The position numbers and the translations under genes were made by a program. From Alphaproteobacteria bacterium (lineage in GTDB: Bacteria > Pseudomonadota > Alphaproteobacteria > SMXP01): a DNA stretch of 64,000 nucleotides. Numbering within the stretch: position 1 is the stretch's first letter; each line of letters opens with the position of its first letter. The notes under the pieces are model-generated. The model saw nothing but the letters and a program-made list of their open reading frames with translations. It was not told where the DNA came from and searched no databases. The stretch spans positions 1,833 to 65,832 of the forward strand of contig JANQLI010000129.1 in assembly GCA_028280675.1 (NCBI GenBank), given 5' to 3'. Below, one piece after another: positions 5,478-29,438 of this stretch.

Positions 5478-6050
5478 TTATTCAGCACTAGATAAATAGC
5501 GCTGCAGAGAAAATAGTGTTTCTTCTAAAGAAACTTGAACAGCTTTCTCGATGGCTTCTTCTGCTGCAGGGGGGCAGGTACCACTTTCTATAGTTGATCG
5601 CACCTCGCGCATACTTTGAGTGTTAAAAGATACAGTCGTCCCATCCGCTTTCAAACCCGAAATGCGTCCATTCACAGTCGCGTCGGCTTTGCAGGCCGAA
5701 GTCATTGAACTGGCCATAAAGCAAGCCACATGAAGATGCGACAACTCGACATCAAGTAATAAATTACTCTCATTGAATTTTTCTTGCTTTGAAGGACCAA
5801 AGGCTTGTTCAATAAGCCCCCGGGAGGCAGATTGCAGATCAACATGAAAAGTATTAGCACTGCATAAAGCTGAAACTGGCTTTATGGTCATTTGGAATGA
5901 CTGAAGGGAGTCAGGTTTAATAGAATAATTTTGCAATGTGGTGCGCGAAACATCCATTTGAGGTGATAACGCCTGAAAAGACTCTGGTGCCACCGTACCT
6001 GTGCAGCCCACTAAAACGAATGCAATCGCTATAAATTTCTGACTTTTCAT
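5478..6050 (-). CDS. Hypothetical lipoprotein
   Basis: The internal start MKSQKFIAIAFVLVGCTG gives a signal peptide with lipobox LVGC. The region is AT-rich. No family recognised. Confidence 0.4.
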   Translation of the reverse strand: MKSQKFIAIAFVLVGCTGTVAPESFQALSPQMDVSRTTLQNYSIKPDSLQSFQMTIKPVSALCSANTFHVDLQSASRGLIEQAFGPSKQEKFNESNLLLDVELSHLHVACFMASSMTSACKADATVNGRISGLKADGTTVSFNTQSMREVRSTIESGTCPPAAEEAIEKAVQVSLEETLFSLQRYLSSAE

Positions 6051-6189
6051 ATTACCCCCAATGAAAGAACCACCAATCAAACTTACAGAATGCATGTAAC
6101 TATTAGTAGAGAACATTAACAGACTTGCAAATAAAGTGCAAAATGCTACCATAGAGCACATTTCATTGTTAATTTTTATGGGGGGAAAA

Positions 6190-6750
6190 ATGAAATATCA
6201 ACAAACAGGCGTAGTTTTAAAGTTAAAATACATAGTAGCAGCTTTAATATTATCAACCATAGCATCATGTGCACCGAAAACAGTACAACCAATTTCTGCT
6301 GTGCCAGTTGAAGTGTCACCCACTCTTGCATATTCAAATGTTGATGTCACATTTGATCAACAAGTCAAAAAATCTGAAAGCATTGAGGAAAGCATACGTA
6401 ATGGCTTTACAGAGGCTATAGCTGATTTCCGCATTGACGATGATGCTCCAGCAGCACTACGCAATGTTGATCTCAAAGTTGAAATTGACGGCTTTCGCAT
6501 GGCTAATGCCGCACTTACGTTCCTATTAGGTGACACAAGTCAACTAGCAGGAACTGTAAAGGTTTTGGATTCCGAAACTAAACAAGAATTAGGGTCTTAC
6601 TATGTTGACAAAATCATTTCTGGCGGCGGCTTACTAGGAATGGCTATGAATCAATCAGAAACAGCTCTTGCCAAACAGTTTGCAAAAGAGTTTTTCAAAG
6701 AACTCGGCAAAGAATTTATTTCACGCAGAAGCAGGCAACGAACCAAATAA
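6190..6750 (+). CDS. Hypothetical lipoprotein
   Basis: The start MKYQQ...LSTIASCAP gives a signal peptide with lipobox IASC. The region is AT-rich, and the gene is divergent from the preceding lipoprotein gene. Confidence 0.4.
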   Translation: MKYQQTGVVLKLKYIVAALILSTIASCAPKTVQPISAVPVEVSPTLAYSNVDVTFDQQVKKSESIEESIRNGFTEAIADFRIDDDAPAALRNVDLKVEIDGFRMANAALTFLLGDTSQLAGTVKVLDSETKQELGSYYVDKIISGGGLLGMAMNQSETALAKQFAKEFFKELGKEFISRRSRQRTK

Positions 6751-6808
6751 AGAATCATATAAAACGACGAACTGTGGCCCTCTAAAATCAGGAGGGCTCA
6801 TAGCGCAA

Positions 6809-8014
6809 TTATGACTTCCGTCTTGCCAGTAGTCTAAGCCTTAGCGCATTCAGTTTAATAAACCCTTCGGCGTCTTTTTGATCATACACCGTATCTTCTT
6901 CGAAGGTCGCGATTTCTTCTGAGTACAGCGTATAAGGCGACTTGCGACCAACGACAGTGGCGCTGCCTTTATAGAGCTTCATGCGCACCGTGCCGGTAAC
7001 AAACTCTTGAGATTTATCAATGAGCGCTTGCAACATTTCCCGTTCAGGGCTGAACCAAAAGCCATTGTATATGAGCTCTGCATAACGCGGCATGATGTCG
7101 TCTTTGAGATGCGCCGCGCCTTTGTCGAGGGTCGCCTCTTCAATGCCGCGATGCGCAGCAAGCAAAATGGTGCCGCCCGGTGTTTCATAAATGCCGCGGG
7201 ATTTCATGCCGACAAAGCGGCTCTCCAAAAGATCAAGCCGTCCGATACCATTATGACGGCCATAATCGTTGAGCGCGGCGAGCAAGGGCGCTGGTGACAT
7301 CGCGACGCCGTCGATCGCCACCGCATCGCCTTTTTCAAAGTCGATCTCAATGTAAGTTGGCTGATCTGGCGCGTCCTCTGGTGAGACGGTCCGCTGATAG
7401 ACATATTCCGGGGCTTCTTCCCAGGGGTCTTCCAGCGCTTTGCCTTCGGATGAGGTGTGAAGCAAGTTGGCATCACAGGAAAACGGCGCTTCGCCGCGTT
7501 TGTCCTTTGGAATGGGAATTTGATTTTTCTCGGCAAAGTCGATCAATTTTGACCGCGAATCGAGATCCCATTCCCGCCAGGGCGCAATCACTTTGATGTC
7601 GGGATCAAGGGCATAATAGCCGAGCTCAAACCGCACCTGGTCATTGCCTTTGCCTGTCGCGCCATGACACACCGCATCCGCCCCGGTTTCATGGGCGATT
7701 TCAATCTGCCGTTTGGCGATCAGCGGCCGGGCGATGGAGGTGCCAAGCAAATACACCCCTTCATACACCGCATTGGCGCGGAACATGGGGAACACATAGT
7801 CACGGACAAATTCTTCGCGCAAATCTTCGATGTAGATCTCTTTGATGCCCATCATTTCCGCTTTTTTGCGCGCGGGCGCAAGCTCTTCTTCCTGACCGAG
7901 ATCGGCCGTAAACGTCACCACTTCACAGCCATAGGTGGTCTCCAGCCATTTCAAGATGATTGAGGTATCGAGGCCTCCGGAATAGGCCAGCACGACTTTT
8001 TTGACATCACTCAT
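6809..8014 (-). CDS. argG: Argininosuccinate synthase
   Basis: The start [18 protein letters not shown] carries the PP-loop SGGLDTS, and the rest has classic ArgG body motifs. The ORF upstream of 8014 looks like a spurious extension. Confidence 0.9.
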
Positions 8015-11800: not shown

Positions 11801-11827
11801 CAAAAGGAAGAAGCAACGCCTTCTCCC
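11801..11827 (-). terminator. Putative rho-independent terminator downstream of the secreted-protein gene triplet
   Basis: The minus strand reads GGAGAAGGCGTTGCTTCTTCCTTTTG: a roughly 7-bp stem (one wobble pair), a 6-nt loop, then a T-run. Confidence 0.4.
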
Positions 11828-11851
11828 TGGTGGTTGGTTTTTGAAAAGGGG

Positions 11852-12283
11852 TTATTCAGACTCTGCCTGTGCAACATCTTGCGGTTCGCCGTTACGGCCA
11901 GGCACAATTTCACCGGTCAGGGTTAAAGCAAAGAAAGGCTTATATTCCCATGTCGCACCCACTTCTGTGTTTTCGCCAATGGGACCACAAATTTCACGGT
12001 TATATTTATTCTCGTGTTCGGGGATGTATGTGCAATGTCCGCGTGAACCGTCTTTTAATGTCGTGTATTCCCATGTCCCGCGATACACATTTTTTTTATC
12101 GACGATGGTGACGGTTTGATCGGGGTTATAAAAATATTTTGTGACTCCACCTTTGCCGAACTGACCACCGGATGTGATGGCGATGGTATTTTCAAAAGCG
12201 ACATCGAAATCAGCTTCCGCCATGGCTGATGATGTTGGCACAAACAAAGCAAATGTCATCAGCGATAACCAAGTCTTTATCAT
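11852..12283 (-). CDS. Small secreted protein, paralog C of a tandem triplet (unknown family)
   Basis: Signal peptide MIKTWLSLMTFALFVPTSSAMA. Shares the motifs FxNT, YxYNPDxTV, GTW, two Cys, GATWE and a C-terminal GEIVPGR. Confidence 0.5.
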   Translation of the reverse strand: MIKTWLSLMTFALFVPTSSAMAEADFDVAFENTIAITSGGQFGKGGVTKYFYNPDQTVTIVDKKNVYRGTWEYTTLKDGSRGHCTYIPEHENKYNREICGPIGENTEVGATWEYKPFFALTLTGEIVPGRNGEPQDVAQAESE

Positions 12284-12320
12284 AACGCATTTTCCCCTGC
12301 TCATCGGCGGCCTTCACCCC

Positions 12321-12686
12321 TTAACGCCCAGCCACCAATTTGCCTTTGATGGTCATATTCGGCCCGCCTTGCGTTTCCCAGGTCGATCCAGGTCCGGCGC
12401 CTTTCATTTCAGCCAAGGGGGCGCAGGCTTCGTAATCCGAACCGTCTGCAAGCTTAAACACAGTGCAAATCGCATCACCTTTTTGCTGCCAGGTATAAAC
12501 ATCATCTGTGTCCGTACCGACAGAACCATCTGGATTATAATATAATTGTATTGTGGTTTCGCTCTCAGGTGTGATCGTTGTCAACACGACAGTATTGCCG
12601 AAGAGAACATCCATCTCACCTGCAAAAGAAAGTGATGACGTGAGTGAAAGACCCAATATACAAAGTAACGTTTTCAAGCGTTTCAC
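12321..12686 (-). CDS. Small secreted protein, paralog B of a tandem triplet (unknown family)
   Basis: Probable GTG start, with an AGGAG Shine-Dalgarno 6 nt upstream. Signal peptide VKRLKTLLCILGLSLTSSLSFA. Same conserved motifs, ending GKLVAGR. Confidence 0.5.
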   Translation of the reverse strand: MKRLKTLLCILGLSLTSSLSFAGEMDVLFGNTVVLTTITPESETTIQLYYNPDGSVGTDTDDVYTWQQKGDAICTVFKLADGSDYEACAPLAEMKGAGPGSTWETQGGPNMTIKGKLVAGR

Positions 12687-12778
12687 GATGTTCTCCTGAA
12701 AGATAAAATGACCTTCCCCATCATCCGACAAGGAAGGTCATCCCGTGTTCACATCAGCTAGCGCTGACAAAACCAATC

Positions 12779-13159
12779 TTAACGGCCGGCAATAAGCGCG
12801 CCTTTAATGTTGAGACCTTCCGCTGGGGAAAACTCCCATGTATCACCGACGGACGCACCTTCCATATCCGCAACCGGATTACAGATCTGTTGTTCTTGAC
12901 CTTGTGGTGATTTCATGGTGGTGCACATTTCAGCACCATTTACCGCCCATGAACCAGTGCTTTCGCCTTGCGATGTAATGATTTTTACAGTGCCATCTTC
13001 ATTGTAGTGATATTTAGATGTCATTGGCGGAATATCTTTGTACGTTGCTGTCATTTCAACGGTGTTCGCAAACAAAACACCAAGATCTGCAGCTTGAGCG
13101 ACGGAGGCTCCCCCCAGAACCAAACTCGACACCAAAATAGACTTGAATACTTTTTTCAT
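12779..13159 (-). CDS. Small secreted protein, paralog A of a tandem triplet (unknown family)
   Basis: Signal peptide MKKVFKSILVSSLVLGGASVAQA. Motifs FANTVEMT, YHYNEDGTV, GSW, two Cys, GDTWE, ending GALIAGR. The start could instead be at 13171. Confidence 0.5.
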   Translation of the reverse strand: MKKVFKSILVSSLVLGGASVAQAADLGVLFANTVEMTATYKDIPPMTSKYHYNEDGTVKIITSQGESTGSWAVNGAEMCTTMKSPQGQEQQICNPVADMEGASVGDTWEFSPAEGLNIKGALIAGR

Positions 13160-13435
13160 TTGTTCCCTCATTCGTCCCCCGTTTCTTTAAGGGGCATCCT
13201 GTTAATTTTGAATACTACGTGTAAGCTGACCAACTCGTACTCAAATAGTCATTTTGGAAAGTGCGAGACTTCCTGCGCCCACGGGCGTGAGTTTTTAACC
13301 TTAAATGAGACAAAAAAAAGGCACCAATGAATCGCGGATGTGACGGGCTTTTTATTGACCACATATTGGTATGAATAAAACTTAAGGTTCAATGGAACAC
13401 AACATATTGCGTGGAGTTTAAGTCCTTATGGCCGT

Positions 13436-16788: not shown

Positions 16789-17460
16789 TTGTCCATGCCG
16801 CAACCGATTCGTATAGCCCCTTCAATTCTTGCCGCTGACTTTGCAAAACTCGGCGAAGAAGTGCGTGCTGTCACCGAAGCTGGTGCGGATTACATCCACA
16901 TTGACGTGATGGATGGCCATTTCGTGCCGAACCTCACGATTGGACCGGATGTGGTGAAAGCGTTGCGTCCACATAGCAAAGCTGTGTTTGACGTCCATCT
17001 CATGATTTCGCCAGTTGATCCGTATATTGATGAATTTGTCGCTGCGGGAGCGAATATTATTTCTTTCCACCCCGAAGCGGGGGCACATGCCCATCGCACG
17101 GTGCAGATGATCAAAGAGGCAGGTATTAAGGCAGGGATCGCATTGAACCCTGCAACCCCAATCGAGGCGATTGACTATTTAATTGACGATCTCGACCTGA
17201 TCTTGGTGATGAGCGTCAATCCAGGCTTTGGCGGACAAAGCTTTATCGAATCCCAACTTGCAAAAATTGCTGCCCTCCGCCAGCGTATTAACGACTCAGG
17301 GCGCGACATCGACTTAGAGGTAGACGGTGGGATTAATTTTGACACCGCTCCAAAAGCCATCGCCGCTGGAGCCGATGTACTTGTCGCCGGAACAGCCACA
17401 TTTAAAGGCGGACCAAGCGCTTACGCGGACAATATCGCAAGGATACGAGGCGGAACGTGA
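16789..17460 (+). CDS. rpe: Ribulose-phosphate 3-epimerase
   Basis: [16 protein letters not shown]...[12 protein letters not shown]... are canonical Rpe motifs. Confidence 0.9.
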
Positions 17461-19241
17461 CAGATGCGACATTGAAGGGTGCCAGGCATGGGCCATCGCG
17501 CGGGGAACTCCTCAGTGATATGGCCCACGAGGCCCTGGCGCGCTCTGCGACATTTCTGCGTGATATATCCTTTCGCTCGTGGCCCTATCGGCTCAGTCTC
17601 GCAGGGCCGATGCCGGATCGCTTCCAGTATTATCCCAAAGATGTTGACCGCGGATCGCTGCCAATCGCGCAAAGTCTGCTGCAAGGACGCTATGCGTCCC
17701 CCGACGGGATGGTGCAAGCCAATCAGAGCACAGCCCCTTGGTCTCTTGTGCCTCCATCTGACGCCTGGGCCGAAACGTTACACGGTTTTTCCTGGCTCAA
17801 ACATTTTGACGGTCATCGCACACCTGCTATGCGCGACCACGTGCATTGGCTCATTACCACATGGATGGAAGACTGCGACCGCTGGAACTCTATCGCCTGG
17901 CGTCCTCATGTCATTGGCCGGCGGCTCATTTCATGGTTTAGCCATGCGAAGCTAATCGCCAATGAAAGCGATCTGATCTGGCGCAGTGAATTGCTGTGCT
18001 CAATTGCTAGACAAGCTCGGCATCTCTCCCGCACAGCGAAATGGGCGCAGGAAGGGGATGCCAAACTGACAGCCGCCGTCGGCCTTGCTTTTTCAGGACT
18101 ATGTTTACCGGACGGCGAACACCGCCTTGAGCAAGGGATGAATATCCTTCTCGCCGAGTTGGATAAACAGATCTTGCCCGATGGCGGGCATGTGAGCCGG
18201 AACCCTTCTGTACAATTGTCAACCTTAGCCGATTTGTGCATGTTAAAAGACTCGCTCTTAGCGGCGAACTTCCCCGTCCCGCAAGACCTCGATGACATCA
18301 TCAGCCGCATGGGGCCGATGCTGCGTTTCTTCCGCCATACTGACGGCAAGCTTGCTCTCTTTAACGGCTCTGCCGAGAATCAAACCACCACAATTGACGC
18401 CTTGCTCGCACGCAAAGATACACGCGGCAAACCCTACGGCTATGCGCCCCATTCCGGTTATCAACGTATACAGGCAGGACGCACCTATCTCATCGCGGAC
18501 ACGGCCTCCCCGCCTCAACGCGGTTTTAGTCAAAACGCCCATGCTGGCTGTTTGTCGTTTGAAATGAGCATCGGCCGCCATCGTTTGATCGTGAATTGCG
18601 GCTCAACAGAAACACGCGGCGGAGATTGGCAAAATGCCAGCCGCGCGACAGCAGCGCATTCCACTGTAACGTTGGCGGACAAATCCTCTGCACGTTTTCT
18701 CAAACGCACTCTGACGGCCAAGCTTCTTGGGCCACGCGTCACACAAGGCCCGAACATGGTGGTGAGTGAACGTGATGAAAACGCGCAGGGTCTGTGGCTC
18801 ACAACATCACATGATGGCTATGTGGATCGTTTCGGTCTCATACATGAACGCCGCCTCTACCTCAGCCGCGATGGAGAAGATTTGCGCGGTGAAGATTGCA
18901 TCAAAGCGCCTGAAAACGACGCCACGCTATCTTGGTTAACACCCCATAGAGGGAAAACATCGACAGCAGTGCCTTTCTCTGTGCGGTTTCATTTGCATCC
19001 TGATGTGCGGGTTTCGCAATCCCGTGACGATGGTTCGGTGATCATGATGTTACCCAATGGCGATGGCTGGACATTCCGCACCAATTGGCCGTCACCAACT
19101 CTTGAGGAGAGCATCTATCTCGGATCTGGCGACGCGCTGAAGCGCACCACTCAAATCGTGATCAATGGGGTGGCGGATAAAGATGCGCAAACCAGCATCA
19201 AATGGGCGATACAGCGCATGAGCACCCTTCCTAAAATCTGA
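17457..19241 (+). CDS. Heparinase II/III-family protein
   Basis: 594 aa. GTG start overlapping the rpe stop (GTGA). I am recalling the syntenic heparinase II/III-like gene that lies between rpe and purH in many Alphaproteobacteria. Confidence 0.5.
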
Positions 19242-19384
19242 TAATTGTTGCGAAAATTAGCTTCAAGTCCAAAATGCGCTGCCCGGAATGACTCCCTCTC
19301 CCGCAAAAACATGCTATGACTATCGCTTACGGGGGTAGAGTCCCCTGCCATGTACGGCGTTAGGAATTAAAGGCAGCCATACCG

Positions 19385-21373
19385 ATGACCAAAGCACAAA
19401 CGCAGCAGCCGCTGATGACCGGACGTATGGCCATCACACTGGCCCATGATGTGATCATGGCGATGATTGTGATGCAAGGCGTTATATGGCTGCGCTATAG
19501 CTTCACTAATTTCGAGCATGGTCCTCTCTACCTCTGGCAAGCAAGCTTGCTGTATGGGGCTGTGAGTATGAGCATTTTTCTGGCCGTTGGCTTGCCACGC
19601 GGCATATGGCGTTACACATCCTTCAATGAATTGATTCAGATTCTGAAAGCAGTGACGTTTGCGACAATTCTTTTCGTCCCTATTCTGTTTTTGTTTACGC
19701 GTCTCGAAGACTTTCCGCGTCTTGTTCCGATCCTGCAATGGCCCTTACTTGTCGGTGCCCTCTGCTTGCCGCGTATCGCGTATCGCTTGCTTACATCTGG
19801 CGATGTAGCGGCGGCGTTCCAATCATATAGCGAAAATCAAATACCGATTTTGTTGTTAGGACCGTCAGACAAAGTTGAACCGTTTATTCGTGAAGCACAG
19901 CGCTTAGGCACGGACCGTTTCCCTTATCGTATCGTCGGTCTCATTGATCCCGACCCACAACAAACAGGCCATAATGTGCGCGGCAAACGGATTCTCGGCG
20001 ATCTAACCGCCATACCGGACGTTGTCCGTAAACTGATAGACGCGGGCCGGGCCCCGCAAAAACTTGTTATGGCTGACCCAGATATGAAGGGCGATACAGT
20101 TGGGCAATTGCTTGAAACGTGTGAGGATCTGGGCATTGGCCTCGCGCGCGCACCGAAACTGACCGACATCCAAGTGAGTGATGGCAACAAGCCCGTGAAT
20201 ATCCGCCCGGTTGATTTGCGTGATCTTTTAGGACGCCCGCAAAAAGCGCTCGACCGCGAAGCAATGCGGCGGATGATTGCCGGAAAACGCGTTCTCATTA
20301 CCGGCGCCGGTGGGACCATTGGGTCAGAACTCACACGTCAGGTTGCAGCTCTTCAGCCCTCCCACATTGCGGTTTTAGATAACAGTGAGTTTAACCTCTA
20401 CCAAATTGATCTTGAGCTTAAAGAGAGTTTTCCCGACCTGCCACGCCGTCAGATATTGGCCGATGTGCGGGATCCAAAGCAAATCGCAAACGTCTTTGCC
20501 AATGAACGCCCCGAAATCGTGTTTCATGCGGCGGCCTTAAAACATGTCCCTATTGTTGAAGATAATCCAGCCGAGGGCATGCTGACCAATGTTGGCGGAA
20601 CGCGGCATGTGATTGATGCCTGTCTCGCGCACAAGATCAACACCATGGTCATGATCTCAACAGATAAGGCCGTTAATCCATCGAACATGATGGGCGCGAG
20701 CAAACGTATCGCGGAGCTGTATTGCCAAGCCCAAGATGTGGCGCAAAACCACACCCAATTCGTCACCGTGCGATTTGGCAATGTGCTCGGCTCGACCGGC
20801 TCTGTCGTGCCCCTCTTTCAAAAGCAACTCGCACGGGGCGGTCCTTTGACAGTGACGCACAAAGAGATGACCCGTTATTTCATGACAACCGCCGAAGCGG
20901 TAGAGCTGGTTCTGCAATCGGCCACACTGCATCTTCATGACGCCCGCGATCATGGCACTGATGGCCGGATTTTTGTGCTCGATATGGGCAAGCCTGTGAA
21001 AATCAGTGCGCTGGCCGAGCGGATTATCCAGCTCGCAGGGCTGCGACCGTATGAGGATATTGATATTATCTTTACCGGGATGCGCGCAGGCGAGAAATTG
21101 CATGAGAGTCTGTTTCACGAACTTGAGAAACTGGTCCCCACCGAATCGGACGGTATCTTTCTCGCCGCACCGCGCATTATCGATGTGGATCAATTGATTC
21201 CAGCGCTGGAACGCCTACTGGATGCCGCTGAGGAGCGTGACCTTACCAAACTTTTTCGCGTCATGCGCACGCTCGTGCCTGAATATGAAGGCGATAGCGC
21301 ACCTGCACAGACCGTAGAAGGCAGCACCACATCCCCAGAGAAAGCGGCTCCCGTGCAAAGCTTGCGCGACTGA
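19385..21373 (+). CDS. Polysaccharide biosynthesis protein CapD/PglF/WbpM-like nucleotide-sugar 4,6-dehydratase
   Basis: N-terminal multi-TM region followed by two Rossmann domains, with VLITGAGGTIGSEL and the extended SDR catalytic region. Confidence 0.7.
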   Translation: MTKAQTQQPLMTGRMAITLAHDVIMAMIVMQGVIWLRYSFTNFEHGPLYLWQASLLYGAVSMSIFLAVGLPRGIWRYTSFNELIQILKAVTFATILFVPILFLFTRLEDFPRLVPILQWPLLVGALCLPRIAYRLLTSGDVAAAFQSYSENQIPILLLGPSDKVEPFIREAQRLGTDRFPYRIVGLIDPDPQQTGHNVRGKRILGDLTAIPDVVRKLIDAGRAPQKLVMADPDMKGDTVGQLLETCEDLGIGLARAPKLTDIQVSDGNKPVNIRPVDLRDLLGRPQKALDREAMRRMIAGKRVLITGAGGTIGSELTRQVAALQPSHIAVLDNSEFNLYQIDLELKESFPDLPRRQILADVRDPKQIANVFANERPEIVFHAAALKHVPIVEDNPAEGMLTNVGGTRHVIDACLAHKINTMVMISTDKAVNPSNMMGASKRIAELYCQAQDVAQNHTQFVTVRFGNVLGSTGSVVPLFQKQLARGGPLTVTHKEMTRYFMTTAEAVELVLQSATLHLHDARDHGTDGRIFVLDMGKPVKISALAERIIQLAGLRPYEDIDIIFTGMRAGEKLHESLFHELEKLVPTESDGIFLAAPRIIDVDQLIPALERLLDAAEERDLTKLFRVMRTLVPEYEGDSAPAQTVEGSTTSPEKAAPVQSLRD

Positions 21374-24533: not shown

Positions 24534-27500
24534 TCATACAGACAAACGCGCTCCGGCCATAGTGGCTAATTCACGGACTTGGCTCGCTGCTAATGACAAT
24601 TTTGCGACAGACAACGCGCCACCGGATTCCATTTCCGCAATCATGACCTTGGTGCGTTCAGCCGCGGCTTGATGGCGGCCTAGCCAGGCTTGCAAAATCG
24701 TCTCAGCATTGTCATCGGCAGTCATATCAGCAAGAACAATCTGCAATAATTGACGTTGCTGTTGGTTGAGGTCATCTATCGTTCGCCGCACTGCCAGCCG
24801 TTCCCAATGTTCGCTGAGGTGCAACTGGGTTGCTTGTTCCCGTAATCCATCAATGCCAAGGTAATCACCGATGCGGAAGTAAAGGGCGCTCGCAAGCGCC
24901 ATATCAACATCCATGCTTTTGAGCACATCAATAATATCACACGCAGCGCTCATGGGTTCGAGCATGCTGATAGCACGCGCAAGATCCTCGGGGACTCCTG
25001 CATGCAAGTATGTGTCTTGCACCGTATTCATATGGAGCAGCATCTGCGGCGCCAAGCAATCCGGCATTGTGGAGGCAACATCATTGATACCGGTTTGATA
25101 GGCTTGAATGGTTTCTTCAAGCGGCAGGGCCACACCATCGCCATCAGCAACGCGATACCGTAAAAACCATAATGTGCGCTGCATTAAGAATTGGCGTATG
25201 GCGCCATAAAGGGAAAGCTGCACATCAGACTCGATGCGGTTATCCAGTTGGTGCACCTCCTGCCACAAATCCGACAGGCCGAAACTTTCCTTCGCTGCAA
25301 TAAAAGTACGGGCCACCAAAGCCGCATCCGCACCACTGTTTTCGACAAGACGGTGAACAAAACTCATCCCGCCCATATTGATGATGTCTCCACCAAGAAC
25401 CGTCGCAATAATTTCACGCCGTAATTGATGCTGTTCTGCAGTCTCACGGTAATGCGCGACCAAGCGCTGTGGTAAGTAGTCGAATAACGCCTGGGTGAGA
25501 TAAGGTTCATCCGGAACGTCTGACTCTATCAACGCATCGAAAAGGGCGATCTTCGCATAGGCCATTACCACAGCCAGTTCCGGGCGTGTCAGCCCCCGAT
25601 TCTCAAGCGATAAGTCGTTGATTTGATCATCGCTCGGCAACCCCTCTACATCGCGATCAAGGCGTCCTTTACTTTCGAGAGCATGCATAAAGCGTTGATG
25701 GGCATCGAGACGCGCCGGCGCTGTGTGCTCTGAAAGACTGAGGGCAAGGGTTTGGGCATAATTATTGGCCAGCACCAAATCCGCCACTTCGTCTGTCATA
25801 TCCGACAACAACACGTTACGTTCATCCGTGCTCAGATGACCTTCACTCAGAACGCGATCTACAAGGATCTTGATATTGACTTCGTGGTCCGAACAATCAA
25901 CCCCTGCGGCATTGTCTACCGCATCCGTATTGATGCGCCCGCCTTTTTGCGCAAAGGCAATACGGCCCGCCTGTGTCACACCAAGATTTGCCCCTTCACC
26001 GATAACCTTGACGTTGACCTCATCGGCATTAATCCGCAGCGAATCATTTGCTTTATCACCGGCTTCAGAATGGCGTTGTGACGCGGCTTTGATGTATGTG
26101 CCGATCCCGCCAAACCACAAAAGATCTGCCGGCGCACGCAAAATAGCTTGCATCACGTCATCAGGCGTGAGTTTGTCGCCCGTGATGTTCAGCACCTCTT
26201 TGGCCTCTGGGGAGAGATCAATGGCTTTAAGAGAGCGGCTATAAACGCCACCGCCGTCTGATATTAAGTTTTGATCATAACTTTCCCAACTGGAACGCGG
26301 GAGCGAGAACAAGCGTTTTCGCTCTGCAAAACTCACAGCCGCATCCGGGTTGGGATCAATAAAAATATCGCGATGATCGAAGGCCGCGATTAAACGGGTT
26401 TGCTCTGATAACAGCATGCCATTGCCAAACACATCGCCGGACATATCGCCCACACCAACCGCCGTGAAAGGCTGTGTTTGAATATCCGTTCCCATTTCAC
26501 GGAAGTGGCGTTTCACCGCCTCCCAGGCGCCACGGGCGGTGATCCCCATCCCTTTATGGTCATACCCTTGCGACCCGCCAGAGGCAAAGGCATCCCCGAG
26601 CCAGAATCCATAGGCGTGTGAAATGTCATTGGCAATATCAGAGAATGTTGCCGTGCCTTTATCCGCCGCGACAACCAAATACGGATCATTGCCATCATGC
26701 ACAACAACACCGTCCGGTTTCACCACATCGCCATCCACAATGTTATCGGCAAGATCAAGCAAACCACTGATGAAAATGCGATAACACACAATCCCTTCCT
26801 GCTGGATGTCTTCGCGGCTGCCGCCTTCAGGTAAGTTTTGCGGCACAAAACCGCCTTTTGCGCCAACAGGCACGATTACTGCATTCTTCACTTGTTGTGC
26901 TTTTGCGAGACCTAAAATTTCCGTGCGAAAATCTTCACGCCGATCCGACCAACGCAAGCCGCCGCGCGCAACAAATCCCCAACGCAAATGAACGCCTTCG
27001 ACACGCGGTGAATAAACAAAAATTTCCGTCAGTGGTTTGGGGAGGGGCAAGTCTTCTAAATCACGGCTTGAAATTTTAAACGAAATATATGATTTCGTTT
27101 CACCCGCCTGATTGACCTGATAAAAATTCGTGCGCCACAGAGCCGAAATCAAAGCGAGAAACTGCCGGATGATGCGGTCTTCATCCAAACTCCGCACATC
27201 ATCTAATGCGCTTATGATTTGCGCACGGTGATCTTCGAATTGCTGTTCCCGGTCTTGTTTCGAAAGAGCCAATGCTGGGTCAAACTTCAGTGCAAATGCG
27301 GTCACGAGCAGTTTCGTGACGATTGGATGATTGGCGAGCGTTTCTTGCATATAAGCGATTGAAAGCGTCCGCCCAGTCTGACGCCAATAATGGGCAAAGC
27401 CACGTAACAACGCCACGTATCGCCAACTGATCCCTTGCTCAACACACAAACGGTTGAACGGATCATTCGCAGCATGTCCGTGCCAAATCGCCTCAAACGC

Positions 27501-29438
27501 CTCTTCTAAATTTTCGGCCACTTGGCCAAAGACAAGCTCCAGCTCGCTTGGCTGCTCCATATAGAAATCATGGACCCAAAATGTCCCGTCAGCGCGATGG
27601 ACTGGATTCCCAGCCTCAGTAATCACTTTCAGCCCCATATTCTCAAGGATCGGCAAGACGTCACTTAAGGGGATGGTTTCGCTTGCCCGGTAAAGCTTAA
27701 GGCGCAACGAATGCGCAGGGTCGCCTGCACGTTGATAACAGCGCAAAGCGATAGCAGGGGGCGCGCTTAACGGCTCTAACTTTTCAATATCGTAACACGC
27801 GTCTTTGGCTGTGTTGATTTCGCGATAGCCTGCTGAGAATGCATCGCCATAGCGCGCAACGAGGGGACGGCTATTTTCTTCGCCATAAATTTCATTTAAT
27901 TCACGTGCGAGCGCATCGCGAAAATTTTGCGTCACTGCGACAATGGTTTTCTCAACATCATCCGGATCAGGATAATCGAACGCCTCTTCAGAGTTACGCC
28001 CAATAATGAAATGAATACGCGCTAATGGCGTATCATTGAACTGCGGGTAAAATGCCGAAAGACGCCCTTGATATGCGTTCACCAACGTCTCTGCAACCTG
28101 ATGGCGCGTCCGTGAATCATAACGGTCACGGGGAATATATACGAGCGCAGAGACATAACGGTCATAGCGATCGCGCCGCACGAAAAGACGCGTGCGCGGA
28201 CGTTCATGCAAATCCAAAATGCCAAGAGAAATACGTAAGAGCTCGTCTTCGCTGGTTTGGAATAATTCGTCGCGTGGATAGGTTTCCAGAATATTGGTCA
28301 ACGCTTTCTTGTTGAAACTTAATGACATAAATCCAGCGCGTTCAATAACGCGTTCGACTTTCCGCGACAGAAGTGGAATACGTGAAATGGATCGGTTGTA
28401 TGCTTCAGACGTGAACAGACCGATGAAGCGATACTCACCTGTCAGTGTCCCTTGCGCATCAAACAGTTTCACGCCGATATAATCCATATAAACCCGGCGG
28501 TGCACTTCGGAGCGCACATTTGCTTTGGTGATAATAATCGGCGAAGGCAACATAAGAAACTCGCGCACTTCGGATGTAAAGTAGACGAGCTTGTCTCCGC
28601 GCCGCAACATACGCGCACTTGGATCACGTAAAATCCCTAGGCCCGTTTCATCAAGAGGCTCAAGCGTGCCGGTCTCTGGCTCACCCTCAAAACGATAGAC
28701 ACGTGATCCCAGCAGAGCAAAATGATCATCGCGCAGCCATGATAAAAAAGCCTGACACTCTGCCGCCTCTTCAGGATCAATCGTGCCTGACATATCCTGA
28801 AGACCTTCAATCGCTTCATTTAAGCGATCCAACATAGGTTCGTAGTCAGCGATGACAATGCGAACTTCATTGACAATCGTATTTAAACGATTTTGCAAAG
28901 ACGTCAGACGGCGCTCATCTGAATGGTAATTAAACTCGATATGGATAACGGACTCGCGATGCGCGCCATTGGACAGGTCCTCCACTCCCGAAGCAAAATC
29001 TAAACACCGCCCTGCGGCATCGCGCTCCACATTGGTGATTGGATGAAGCACACTGCGCAGCTCAACCCCTTGCGCTGTCAGCTCCCCCAATATCGAGTCA
29101 ACGAGGAAGGGCATATCCGCCGCAACGATCTCAAGAATCGTATGTGGACTTTCCCAACCATGCTCAGCCATATTTGGATTGAACACCCGCAACAAGACAT
29201 CGTTGGGCGCGCGGCATGCGGAGAAACGCCAAAACGATAACGCGGCGTGAAAAAGCTGGCTGCTGTCATATATGTCCAATTCATCTGGCAGGGCGTCATC
29301 GAACAAAGCCTGTATAAAGGCAGAGAAACCTGTATATGAGATGTGATCAGAGTCTGCTGGCGTGCTCTGCCCCTGAGTATCCGACGCCAATGACACAATC
29401 TCGGCTATTCTATCGGCTTTATCCTGTCGGTACATCAC
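24534..29438 (-). CDS. gdhB: NAD-specific glutamate dehydrogenase, large (about 180 kDa) form
   Basis: 1634-aa single ORF with the typical length and domain order of the large NAD-GDH family. Confidence 0.85.
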   Translation of the reverse strand: MMYRQDKADRIAEIVSLASDTQGQSTPADSDHISYTGFSAFIQALFDDALPDELDIYDSSQLFHAALSFWRFSACRAPNDVLLRVFNPNMAEHGWESPHTILEIVAADMPFLVDSILGELTAQGVELRSVLHPITNVERDAAGRCLDFASGVEDLSNGAHRESVIHIEFNYHSDERRLTSLQNRLNTIVNEVRIVIADYEPMLDRLNEAIEGLQDMSGTIDPEEAAECQAFLSWLRDDHFALLGSRVYRFEGEPETGTLEPLDETGLGILRDPSARMLRRGDKLVYFTSEVREFLMLPSPIIITKANVRSEVHRRVYMDYIGVKLFDAQGTLTGEYRFIGLFTSEAYNRSISRIPLLSRKVERVIERAGFMSLSFNKKALTNILETYPRDELFQTSEDELLRISLGILDLHERPRTRLFVRRDRYDRYVSALVYIPRDRYDSRTRHQVAETLVNAYQGRLSAFYPQFNDTPLARIHFIIGRNSEEAFDYPDPDDVEKTIVAVTQNFRDALARELNEIYGEENSRPLVARYGDAFSAGYREINTAKDACYDIEKLEPLSAPPAIALRCYQRAGDPAHSLRLKLYRASETIPLSDVLPILENMGLKVITEAGNPVHRADGTFWVHDFYMEQPSELELVFGQVAENLEEAFEAIWHGHAANDPFNRLCVEQGISWRYVALLRGFAHYWRQTGRTLSIAYMQETLANHPIVTKLLVTAFALKFDPALALSKQDREQQFEDHRAQIISALDDVRSLDEDRIIRQFLALISALWRTNFYQVNQAGETKSYISFKISSRDLEDLPLPKPLTEIFVYSPRVEGVHLRWGFVARGGLRWSDRREDFRTEILGLAKAQQVKNAVIVPVGAKGGFVPQNLPEGGSREDIQQEGIVCYRIFISGLLDLADNIVDGDVVKPDGVVVHDGNDPYLVVAADKGTATFSDIANDISHAYGFWLGDAFASGGSQGYDHKGMGITARGAWEAVKRHFREMGTDIQTQPFTAVGVGDMSGDVFGNGMLLSEQTRLIAAFDHRDIFIDPNPDAAVSFAERKRLFSLPRSSWESYDQNLISDGGGVYSRSLKAIDLSPEAKEVLNITGDKLTPDDVMQAILRAPADLLWFGGIGTYIKAASQRHSEAGDKANDSLRINADEVNVKVIGEGANLGVTQAGRIAFAQKGGRINTDAVDNAAGVDCSDHEVNIKILVDRVLSEGHLSTDERNVLLSDMTDEVADLVLANNYAQTLALSLSEHTAPARLDAHQRFMHALESKGRLDRDVEGLPSDDQINDLSLENRGLTRPELAVVMAYAKIALFDALIESDVPDEPYLTQALFDYLPQRLVAHYRETAEQHQLRREIIATVLGGDIINMGGMSFVHRLVENSGADAALVARTFIAAKESFGLSDLWQEVHQLDNRIESDVQLSLYGAIRQFLMQRTLWFLRYRVADGDGVALPLEETIQAYQTGINDVASTMPDCLAPQMLLHMNTVQDTYLHAGVPEDLARAISMLEPMSAACDIIDVLKSMDVDMALASALYFRIGDYLGIDGLREQATQLHLSEHWERLAVRRTIDDLNQQQRQLLQIVLADMTADDNAETILQAWLGRHQAAAERTKVMIAEMESGGALSVAKLSLAASQVRELATMAGARLSV

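Follow-up and report, generated by a model that had tools for sequence, protein, structure and literature searches.

What do three small, divergent and apparently exported proteins encoded side by side in an alphaproteobacterial genome do, and how did they come to be there? The question is raised by a 64,000-nucleotide stretch of contig JANQLI010000129.1 (assembly GCA_028280675.1, Alphaproteobacteria bacterium, positions 1,833 to 65,832), referred to here as the window, in which three consecutive genes on the minus strand, named A, B and C in the order of transcription, predict small proteins that begin with signal peptides. As judged from sequence searches, A, B and C belong to a family that is undescribed, is not covered by current domain databases and is confined, as far as seen, to the Alphaproteobacteria. 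Our preferred reading, held tentatively and at somewhat less than even confidence, is that the products are periplasmic lipocalin-like binding modules stapled by a disulfide, that their ligand is either part of a partner protein or a small molecule of hydrophobic or amphipathic character, that they are tied to the cell envelope, and that their genes were amplified in this lineage.

Three paralogs and the extent of their family

The original prediction, made from the letters of the window alone, described three consecutive minus-strand genes for small secreted paralogs that share an ordered set of motifs and two Cys residues, and this description is upheld. The three open reading frames (ORFs) are in place (Table 1), and an alignment of the predicted products has 26 invariant columns, including F-x-N-T, Y-N-x-D, the W of G-x-W, C...C, G-x-T-W-E and G-R. 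Pairwise identities are 30-38%, and the BLASTP E values for A and B (7e-21), A and C (5e-18) and B and C (7e-11) are far beyond chance. The likely start of A is the ATG at 13159, with an alternative ATG upstream at 13171 that would add 4 residues. A public gene call, P0001, is identical in sequence to A and also has 126 aa from the ATG at 13159. The GTG start and AGGAG Shine-Dalgarno (SD) sequence reported for the middle gene were found as described, and orthologs of B, that in locus L022 among them, have ATG instead of GTG in this position. C is distinguished by a 5-residue insert ahead of the first Cys and a 13-residue acidic tail that extends past the G-R with which family members otherwise end.

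A signal peptide had also been claimed for each product, and a heuristic scan was positive for A, B and C. Each N-terminus has an n-region with K/R, a hydrophobic core and an AxA-type site, and none has a lipobox. This feature is kept across the family alignment, and by the same heuristic the proteins have the characteristics of Sec-exported soluble periplasmic proteins. The mature forms of A, B and C are acidic (pI 4.1-4.7). Each protein would leave the cytoplasm through the Sec pathway and lose its signal peptide to signal peptidase I.

The family had been called unrecognised, and profile searches agree. Pfam-A, NCBIfam and PADLOC have no match for A, B or C, and the same three collections have none at family thresholds for 70 relatives or for the family consensus. 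The 46 retrievable members all lack precomputed Pfam domains as well as informative names. A word-indexed search of 5.8 billion proteins, using one protein or the three paralogs as query, found only 3-7 close relatives. An exhaustive HMMER search of 1.84 billion cluster representatives returned 151 matches at E <= 1e-3, nearly all of them 105-135 aa long. A few of the 151 are spurious matches to repeats, and the size of the family is approximately 150 clusters at 50% identity. Three entries in the match list, P0102 (PKD repeats), P0123 and P0135 (WD40), were set aside as they seem to be spurious, arising from repeats or low complexity.

The named sources number ten, every one of them from the Alphaproteobacteria. 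Nine are reference-genome loci, found by querying the genome collection with a Caulobacterales-type core, and come from metagenome-assembled genomes (MAGs) labelled Hyphomonadaceae, Terricaulis, Caulobacteraceae or uncultured Alphaproteobacteria. The tenth is a single NCBI protein labelled 'Alphaproteobacteria bacterium'. A scan of the genome collection with the three paralogs gave no matches, and no match to the family consensus was detected in plasmids using tblastn.

Conservation is concentrated in a small number of positions. Over 181 sequences, and using the numbering of A, the near-invariant residues are N32 (99%), T33 (97%), D55 (96%), G69 (96%), W71 (89%), C79 (99%), C93 (100%), G105 (99%), D106 (83%), W108 (97%), G125 (99%) and R126 (77%), with C79 and C93 being the two invariant Cys of A. 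Some members carry the domain twice. P0009 is a plain two-copy fusion in one polypeptide, and the 247-aa P0077 contains two copies of the subtype found in P0021, which is itself a lipoprotein cytochrome c followed by two copies. P0015 and P0037 are anchored in the membrane, and their two copies come after an N-terminal domain of ~200 aa of unknown type.

Predicted fold and conservation of the barrel ends

Structure prediction, suggested as a check in the original prediction, gave lipocalin-like eight-stranded barrels for both of the proteins modelled. The AlphaFold2 model of A, built from a 49-sequence alignment, has a predicted local distance difference test score (pLDDT) of 85.8, which exceeds 90 over most of the mature domain, and contains a short helix (residues 27-30) and then eight strands. 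An independent model of mature C (pLDDT 85.2, predicted template-modelling score 0.78) has the same helix and the same order of eight strands, and its acidic tail is disordered with low confidence. In these models, the short helix is followed by what is predicted to be an eight-stranded antiparallel up-and-down barrel of lipocalin-like or calycin type. The two invariant Cys lie in the model on the adjacent antiparallel strands 5 and 6, either side of a variable loop, and in the oxidising periplasm C79 and C93 would be expected to form a disulfide staple. The mature protein of ~100-120 aa would be soluble and acidic, folding as a helix and an eight-stranded barrel that is stapled between strands 5 and 6.

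The closest sequence and fold neighbours found are lipocalin-like domains, with all scores under the curated thresholds. Lipocalin_4 (PF13648) matches 17 of the 70 members at E <= 1 (best E 5.6e-5), and the family consensus scores 20.4 bits against it, the gathering cutoff being 22.4. A, B and C themselves do not match Lipocalin_4 even at E <= 10. DUF4923 (PF16270) matches 16 of the 70 members (best E 1.6e-4) and DUF995 (PF06191) matches two (best E 0.042), both short of the threshold, and the consensus scores 21.9 bits against DUF5640 (PF18692), which has a cutoff of 28.5. The profile search of PDB sequences returned 4zgf (E 0.003) and intestinal fatty-acid-binding proteins (E ~0.03). The best Foldseek matches are the small lipocalin-like barrels 6czi, 4qrl, 5h9n, 5byp, 8wb2 and 4u3q, with template-modelling (TM) scores of 0.36-0.5, and a Foldseek search of viral structures gave nothing meaningful. 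We regard the proteins as a new sequence family of lipocalin-like (calycin-type) architecture that lacks a close solved relative.

Like the family as predicted, Lipocalin_4, DUF4923 and DUF5640, together with the Bacteroides structures 4qrl, 5byp and 4zgf, are small, exported bacterial eight-stranded up-and-down barrels. Foldseek comparison with this group gave E values of ~0.01-0.1 and TM scores of 0.35-0.45. Lipocalin_4-type proteins and the family share a central F-x-x-D-G-T ... G-x-W ... G-x-x-L/C type of motif that extends from strand 2 to strand 5. The family differs from the Lipocalin_4 type in its own Cys pair, its N-T and V-G-D-x-W motifs, a C-terminal A-G-R, the lack of a lipobox and its occurrence in Alphaproteobacteria. 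Lipocalin_4-type families are mostly lipoproteins of Bacteroidota.

Kernel lipocalins (Blc, plant TIL 8wb2 and insect LTBP1 5h9n) also have an eight-stranded antiparallel barrel with a short N-terminal helix, with conserved residues (Trp and Arg) concentrated at one end and variable loops opposite, and they carry hydrophobic ligands. However, kernel lipocalins are 160-180 aa long and the mature family proteins only ~100 aa, G-x-W is found on strand A, after a 3-10 helix, in the former and on strand 4 in the latter, and paralog A lacks the C-terminal helix that is packed on the barrel of kernel lipocalins. A, B, C and the consensus have no Pfam match to PF00061, Foldseek TM scores do not exceed 0.5, and the family is not placed among the kernel lipocalins.

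The general architecture is also that of known enzyme inhibitors, and the original prediction had offered binding or inhibitor proteins as the role signalled by the array while separating the family from MliC/PliC and Inh. MliC/PliC (PF09864; 2f09, 3f6z) and Inh/AprI (PF02974; 1jiw_I) are exported eight-stranded barrels of ~100 aa with a Cys pair, and AprI also has a G-x-W ... C motif. The products of A, B and C could accordingly be hydrolase inhibitors similar to MliC/PliC, Neisseria ACP or Inh/AprI, in which a conserved surface of the disulfide-stapled barrel would block an active site, and the near-invariant polar cluster of N32, T33, D55, D106 and R126 on one face could be such an interaction surface. 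Membership of either inhibitor family was rejected, as the original prediction had it. When the 70-sequence profile was compared using hhalign with E. coli MliC, the probability was 15.8% and the alignment covered the signal peptide only, and the value for Pseudomonas aeruginosa AprI (MEROPS I38) was 0.4% over 16 columns. The reference sequences had been verified against 2f09 and 1jiw_I, respectively. The consensus has no MliC or Inh Pfam match, and MliC is a lipoprotein whereas the family proteins have no lipobox. In the Foldseek list, MliC and Inh are outside the top 50 matches, and Neisseria ACP (6gq4) is at rank 50 with a TM score of only 0.25.

The distribution of conserved residues over the predicted barrel is uneven. 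In an up-and-down topology, the start of strand 1, the connections 2-3, 4-5 and 6-7, and the end of strand 8 all lie at the same end of the barrel. The near-invariant residues are nearly all found at this end, which carries the N- and C-termini, the exceptions being two turn glycines. The motifs there are N-T where strand 1 begins, the N-x-D-G-T turn, G-x-W within strand 4, V-G-D-x-W ahead of strand 7, and G-R at the C-terminus. The loops of the opposite end (1-2, 3-4, 5-6 and 7-8) are the least conserved, with indels mostly in 1-2 and 5-6. When three orthologs of A and three of B are compared, all six are identical at 15 of 40 positions of the conserved end, as against 1 of 25 in the loops of the opposite end. 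In lipocalins, a conserved Trp in strand A and an Arg in strand H close one end of the barrel, and variable loops ring the ligand entrance. By analogy, the conserved end is most likely the closed structural end, as in lipocalins, with the variable loops at what would be the open end.

Origin of the triplet, selection and expression signals

A neighbour-joining (NJ) tree of 180 sequences from the family groups A, B and C in a single 10-member subclade. Assignment of C to another clade, in which family genes are linked to AsmA-like genes (see below), had been considered given its 37% identity to the L006 protein, and was rejected because the tree groups A, B and C in a subclade of their own. The orthologous locus in a distant relative (L029, positions 1-2077) includes HtpX, 66% identical to that of the window, DUF1674 and a single family gene with a terminator-like hairpin directly after it. 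This arrangement is the ancestral single-copy state. The single copy at the orthologous locus and the grouping of A, B and C in one subclade therefore identify the triplet as tandem copies of one ancestral gene, amplified specifically in this lineage at a conserved htpX-DUF1674 site. Tandem duplication of the ancestral gene beside DUF1674 and htpX would have produced the copies, and purifying selection would have held them.

Two loci from close relatives, both recovered from one metagenome, include parts of the same array. L021 has A then B, and L022 has DUF1674, A, B and the start of C. The orthologs of A are 81% and 74% identical to it, and those of B are 61-63% identical. Using the Nei-Gojobori method against these orthologs, dN/dS is 0.11-0.21 for A, with 0.11-0.13 against the 81% and 74% identical orthologs, and ~0.09 for B. 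In the same genomes the neighbouring DUF1674 gene has a dN/dS of 0.21 and an identity of 63%, such that A is conserved better than DUF1674. The copies are under ordinary purifying selection because their dN/dS values of 0.09-0.21 are similar to that of DUF1674. Of the original description of the copies as old or fast-evolving, the first part stands and the second is contradicted by these values. The description of the array as diversified does not survive either, given purifying selection and variable loops that lack paralog-specific conservation. The B ortholog in L022 contains an in-frame TAG at approximately 1293-1295 (TPLS-stop-LKGAGPG...), after which the frame runs on to the usual ...PGR end. 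This reflects either recent decay into a pseudogene or an error in sequencing or assembly.

Tandem copies have also arisen elsewhere in the family. An independent triplet of 119, 115 and 115 aa, with 38-49% mutual identity, is located in an unrelated genome (L003, positions 6001-7263), where it is flanked by a gluconolactonase-like (SGL) gene and a Mrp/ApbC-type gene. Pairs are found in L014 and L020, and most loci have a single gene.

The array includes a strong hairpin with a U-tract in the 92 bp spacer between A and B, which the original prediction did not mention and which is much stronger than the hairpin at the end of the array. The minus-strand segment 12687-12785 folds at -38.5 kcal/mol (z = -4.5), and none of 200 shuffled sequences was as stable. 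The hairpin is conserved in L022, and in L021 it is retained with both arms of the stem changed. It may be an internal terminator, an attenuator or an mRNA-stabilising element. The terminator scan overlooked it, probably because the stem is longer than the short-stem criteria of the scan. In the L003 triplet, elements consisting of a hairpin and a T-run follow copies 1 and 3 as well. The copies may thus be separately terminated or attenuated, with putatively higher expression of A than of B and C. The B-C gap is 37 bp and shows no significant structure when folded.

The array had been reported to end in a hairpin followed by a T-run. A 9-bp stem is present 3' of C, but only four T follow it and it was not called by the terminator scan for that reason. 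The fold of the surrounding 81 nt has a z-score of -0.8, and the hairpin is a weak candidate for an intrinsic terminator.

In the region between DUF1674 and A, no convincing sigma-70 match was found over 13172-13435, and the fold of 13160-13300 is indistinguishable from shuffled sequences. A small GC-rich palindrome, TGCGCCCACGGGCGTG, lies 5' of A at 13274-13289 and was called by the scan as a plus-strand terminator. No plus-strand gene ends there, and the palindrome could be an operator or a bidirectional element. Scans of the window for Rfam families and tRNA genes gave no matches.

Table 1. Features of the A, B and C array (positions in the window) and related loci grouped by the gene that precedes the family gene.
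Feature	Position	Strand	Details
Paralog A, coding sequence	12782-13159	minus	126 aa; stop 12779-12781; ORF 12779-13171
Signal peptide of A	residues 1-23, 13091-13159	minus	predicted cleavage between AQA and AD
Hairpin in A-B spacer	12705-12744 (element including U-rich tract 12698-12744)	minus	17-18 bp stem, directly 5' of the SD of B
SD of B, AGGAG	12693-12697	minus	6 bases 5' of GTG; read from sequence
Paralog B, coding sequence	12324-12686	minus	121 aa; stop 12321-12323; GTG start 12686-12684
Signal peptide of B	residues 1-22, 12621-12686	minus	predicted cleavage between SFA and GE
Paralog C, coding sequence	11855-12283	minus	143 aa from second ATG; stop 11852-11854
Signal peptide of C	residues 1-22, 12218-12283	minus	predicted cleavage between AMA and EA
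Hairpin 3' of C	11805-11828 (element 11801-11828)	minus	9-bp stem including G-U pairs, then UUUU; 24 bases past the stop of C
DUF1674-to-A intergenic region	13172-13435	minus	264 bp; presumed promoter region of the array
AsmA-linked loci			L006, L008, L009, L010, L023, L024, L026, L027
DUF418-linked loci (at least 5)			L011, L012, L013, L014, L020

Genomic context and possible roles

Family genes in other clades have consistent neighbours. In the clade with proteins of 125-128 aa, the order AsmA-like gene, family gene, aspartate dehydrogenase gene and putA was found in 8 of the 8 loci with enough upstream DNA, even where the AsmA proteins are only ~41-47% identical. In Caulobacterales MAGs, one or two family copies are found between dapE and dapD, following a co-directional DUF418 gene after a spacer of a few tens of bases (Table 1). 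In L030, the family gene follows a gene for an NnrU membrane protein. DUF418/YeiB proteins are members of the transmembrane acyltransferase superfamily (PMC12423673). AsmA-like proteins have been proposed to form intermembrane phospholipid bridges, and the gene for one of those in E. coli is accompanied by a gene for a small periplasmic modulator, YdbL (PMC11126948, PMC13464000). The clade-specific neighbours hint at a role in the envelope, with which the fusions to membrane-anchored proteins and to a lipoprotein cytochrome c agree.

One way to account for these linkages is that the proteins serve membrane machines of the envelope as accessory or modulator subunits. The barrel would bind a partner protein in place of a small ligand, the candidates being an AsmA-like lipid bridge, contacted at its periplasmic end, and a transmembrane acyltransferase, contacted at a periplasmic loop. 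Such a role would resemble that of YdbL, which modulates the YdbH-YnbE bridge in E. coli. The retention of the AsmA-like gene ahead of the family gene at every informative locus of one clade, at AsmA identities down to ~41%, the co-directional DUF418 genes just upstream in Caulobacterales, NnrU in L030, the membrane-anchored fused forms and the precedent of a small periplasmic modulator whose gene accompanies that of an AsmA-like protein (PMC13464000, PMC11126948) all agree with such a role. However, the partner gene depends on the clade and is absent beside both the triplet of the window and the L003 triplet, and the members of a clade can inherit a gene order that has no functional basis. 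YdbL, from the E. coli ydbH-ynbE-ydbL cluster, resembles the family as a small soluble periplasmic protein encoded with an AsmA-like gene (PMC13464000), but this is an analogy of genomic arrangement only, and the AsmA linkage belongs to a clade other than that of the window triplet. No relationship of YdbL to the family was detected in general sequence searches, none of which was aimed at YdbL. Literature searches on a lipocalin-like partner of AsmA, or on Lipocalin_4, found nothing relevant. We consider a modulator role unlikely.

A more specific proposal combines both kinds of neighbour with the predicted fold. The proteins could be soluble periplasmic barrels that bind lipids or acyl acceptors and cooperate with AsmA-like bridges in one clade and with YeiB/DUF418 acyltransferases in Caulobacterales, and tandem arrays and fused doublets would then represent several carriers or a hetero-oligomeric carrier. 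This is speculative, and we would not expect it to be correct in this form.

The surroundings of the triplet itself are of a housekeeping kind. Downstream are an SDR-family gene, a luciferase-like monooxygenase gene, pyrF and argG, and upstream are DUF1674, htpX, rsmB, a gene for a glycine-zipper lipoprotein and rpe. Further out in the window are purH and a gene for a 1634-aa NAD-glutamate dehydrogenase (24534-29438). This gene content, DUF1674 included, would suit an alphaproteobacterium. In its GC content, the array is typical of the window (46.6% against 48.6%). Two other features of the window were noted, namely a heparinase II/III-like gene beside a Polysacc_synt_2 gene (17457-21373) and a 227-aa minus-strand ORF without a Pfam match at E <= 0.001 (5478-6161).

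These surroundings bear on the inhibitor role. The original prediction proposed examining whether homologs neighbour secreted hydrolases or toxins, and none adjoins a family member in ~20 independent loci, nor does the 64-kb window have a toxin, secretion-system or secreted hydrolase gene around the triplet. No protease or lysozyme gene is adjacent at any of the ~20 loci, and the named carriers are MAGs of Caulobacterales and of unclassified Alphaproteobacteria, with no evidence of host association. Multi-copy arrays could in principle be directed at different enzymes. Inhibition of the nearby HtpX by A, B or C was considered and rejected; HtpX of E. coli is a membrane protease with an active site that faces the cytoplasm, and DUF1674 lies between htpX and the array. 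Of the binding or inhibitor signature that had been proposed, generic binding is compatible with the predicted lipocalin-like barrel, and the inhibitor or immunity part finds no support in the context of ~20 loci. Neither a confident match to a characterised family nor a lack of predicted signal peptides, the two outcomes named in the original prediction as evidence against it, was observed, and an inhibitor role, although unsupported, is therefore retained as an alternative that we judge to be quite improbable.

The same loci argue more strongly against immunity proteins, which would protect from periplasm-acting toxins such as those of type VI secretion systems, contact-dependent inhibition systems or bacteriocins, with diversified copies neutralising variants of the toxin. 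Small periplasmic proteins in tandem arrays of divergent copies are what such a role would predict, but no toxin, Rhs, VgrG, CdiA or secretion-system gene was found near the array in the 64-kb window or at any related locus. Family genes occupy conserved housekeeping positions (htpX-DUF1674 and dapE-dapD), many genomes have a single copy, orthologs are 61-81% identical with dN/dS of 0.1-0.2, there is no PADLOC match, and the array, at 46.6% GC, resembles the window (48.6%). An immunity function is extremely improbable.

The reading as binding modules has difficulties of its own. Function could instead reside in the near-invariant polar cluster of the conserved end, and the core of a barrel of ~100 residues may be filled. 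Even orthologs differ from each other in the variable loops. Paralog-specific (type II) conserved sites are few and show no enrichment there, with only 1 of 25 loop positions qualifying. No claim of tuned loop specificities is therefore made. The triplet also lacks a membrane-protein partner upstream, being flanked by DUF1674 and an SDR-family gene, and there is no AsmA or DUF418 homolog in the window. The envelope link therefore comes from other clades and could be no more than synteny. With a partner that changes from clade to clade and is missing from the window locus, it amounts to guilt by association.

With these points considered, a periplasmic lipocalin-like binding module is still the role that we tentatively favour for A, B and C. 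In the periplasm, the barrel would bind a partner-protein segment or a small hydrophobic or amphipathic molecule, in either case connected with the cell envelope. The remaining probability falls to some function other than a binding module, modulator, inhibitor or immunity protein.

For the genome in question, the array represents an ordinary, conserved, lineage-specific gene amplification and not a toxin-immunity or arms-race locus. The most interesting lead is the clade-specific linkage of the family to AsmA-like and YeiB-type envelope proteins. If the proposed connection is correct, a new family of at least ~150 clusters would be a candidate for a missing soluble component of lipid or glycan handling in the envelope, a field in which new partners of AsmA-like proteins continue to be discovered.

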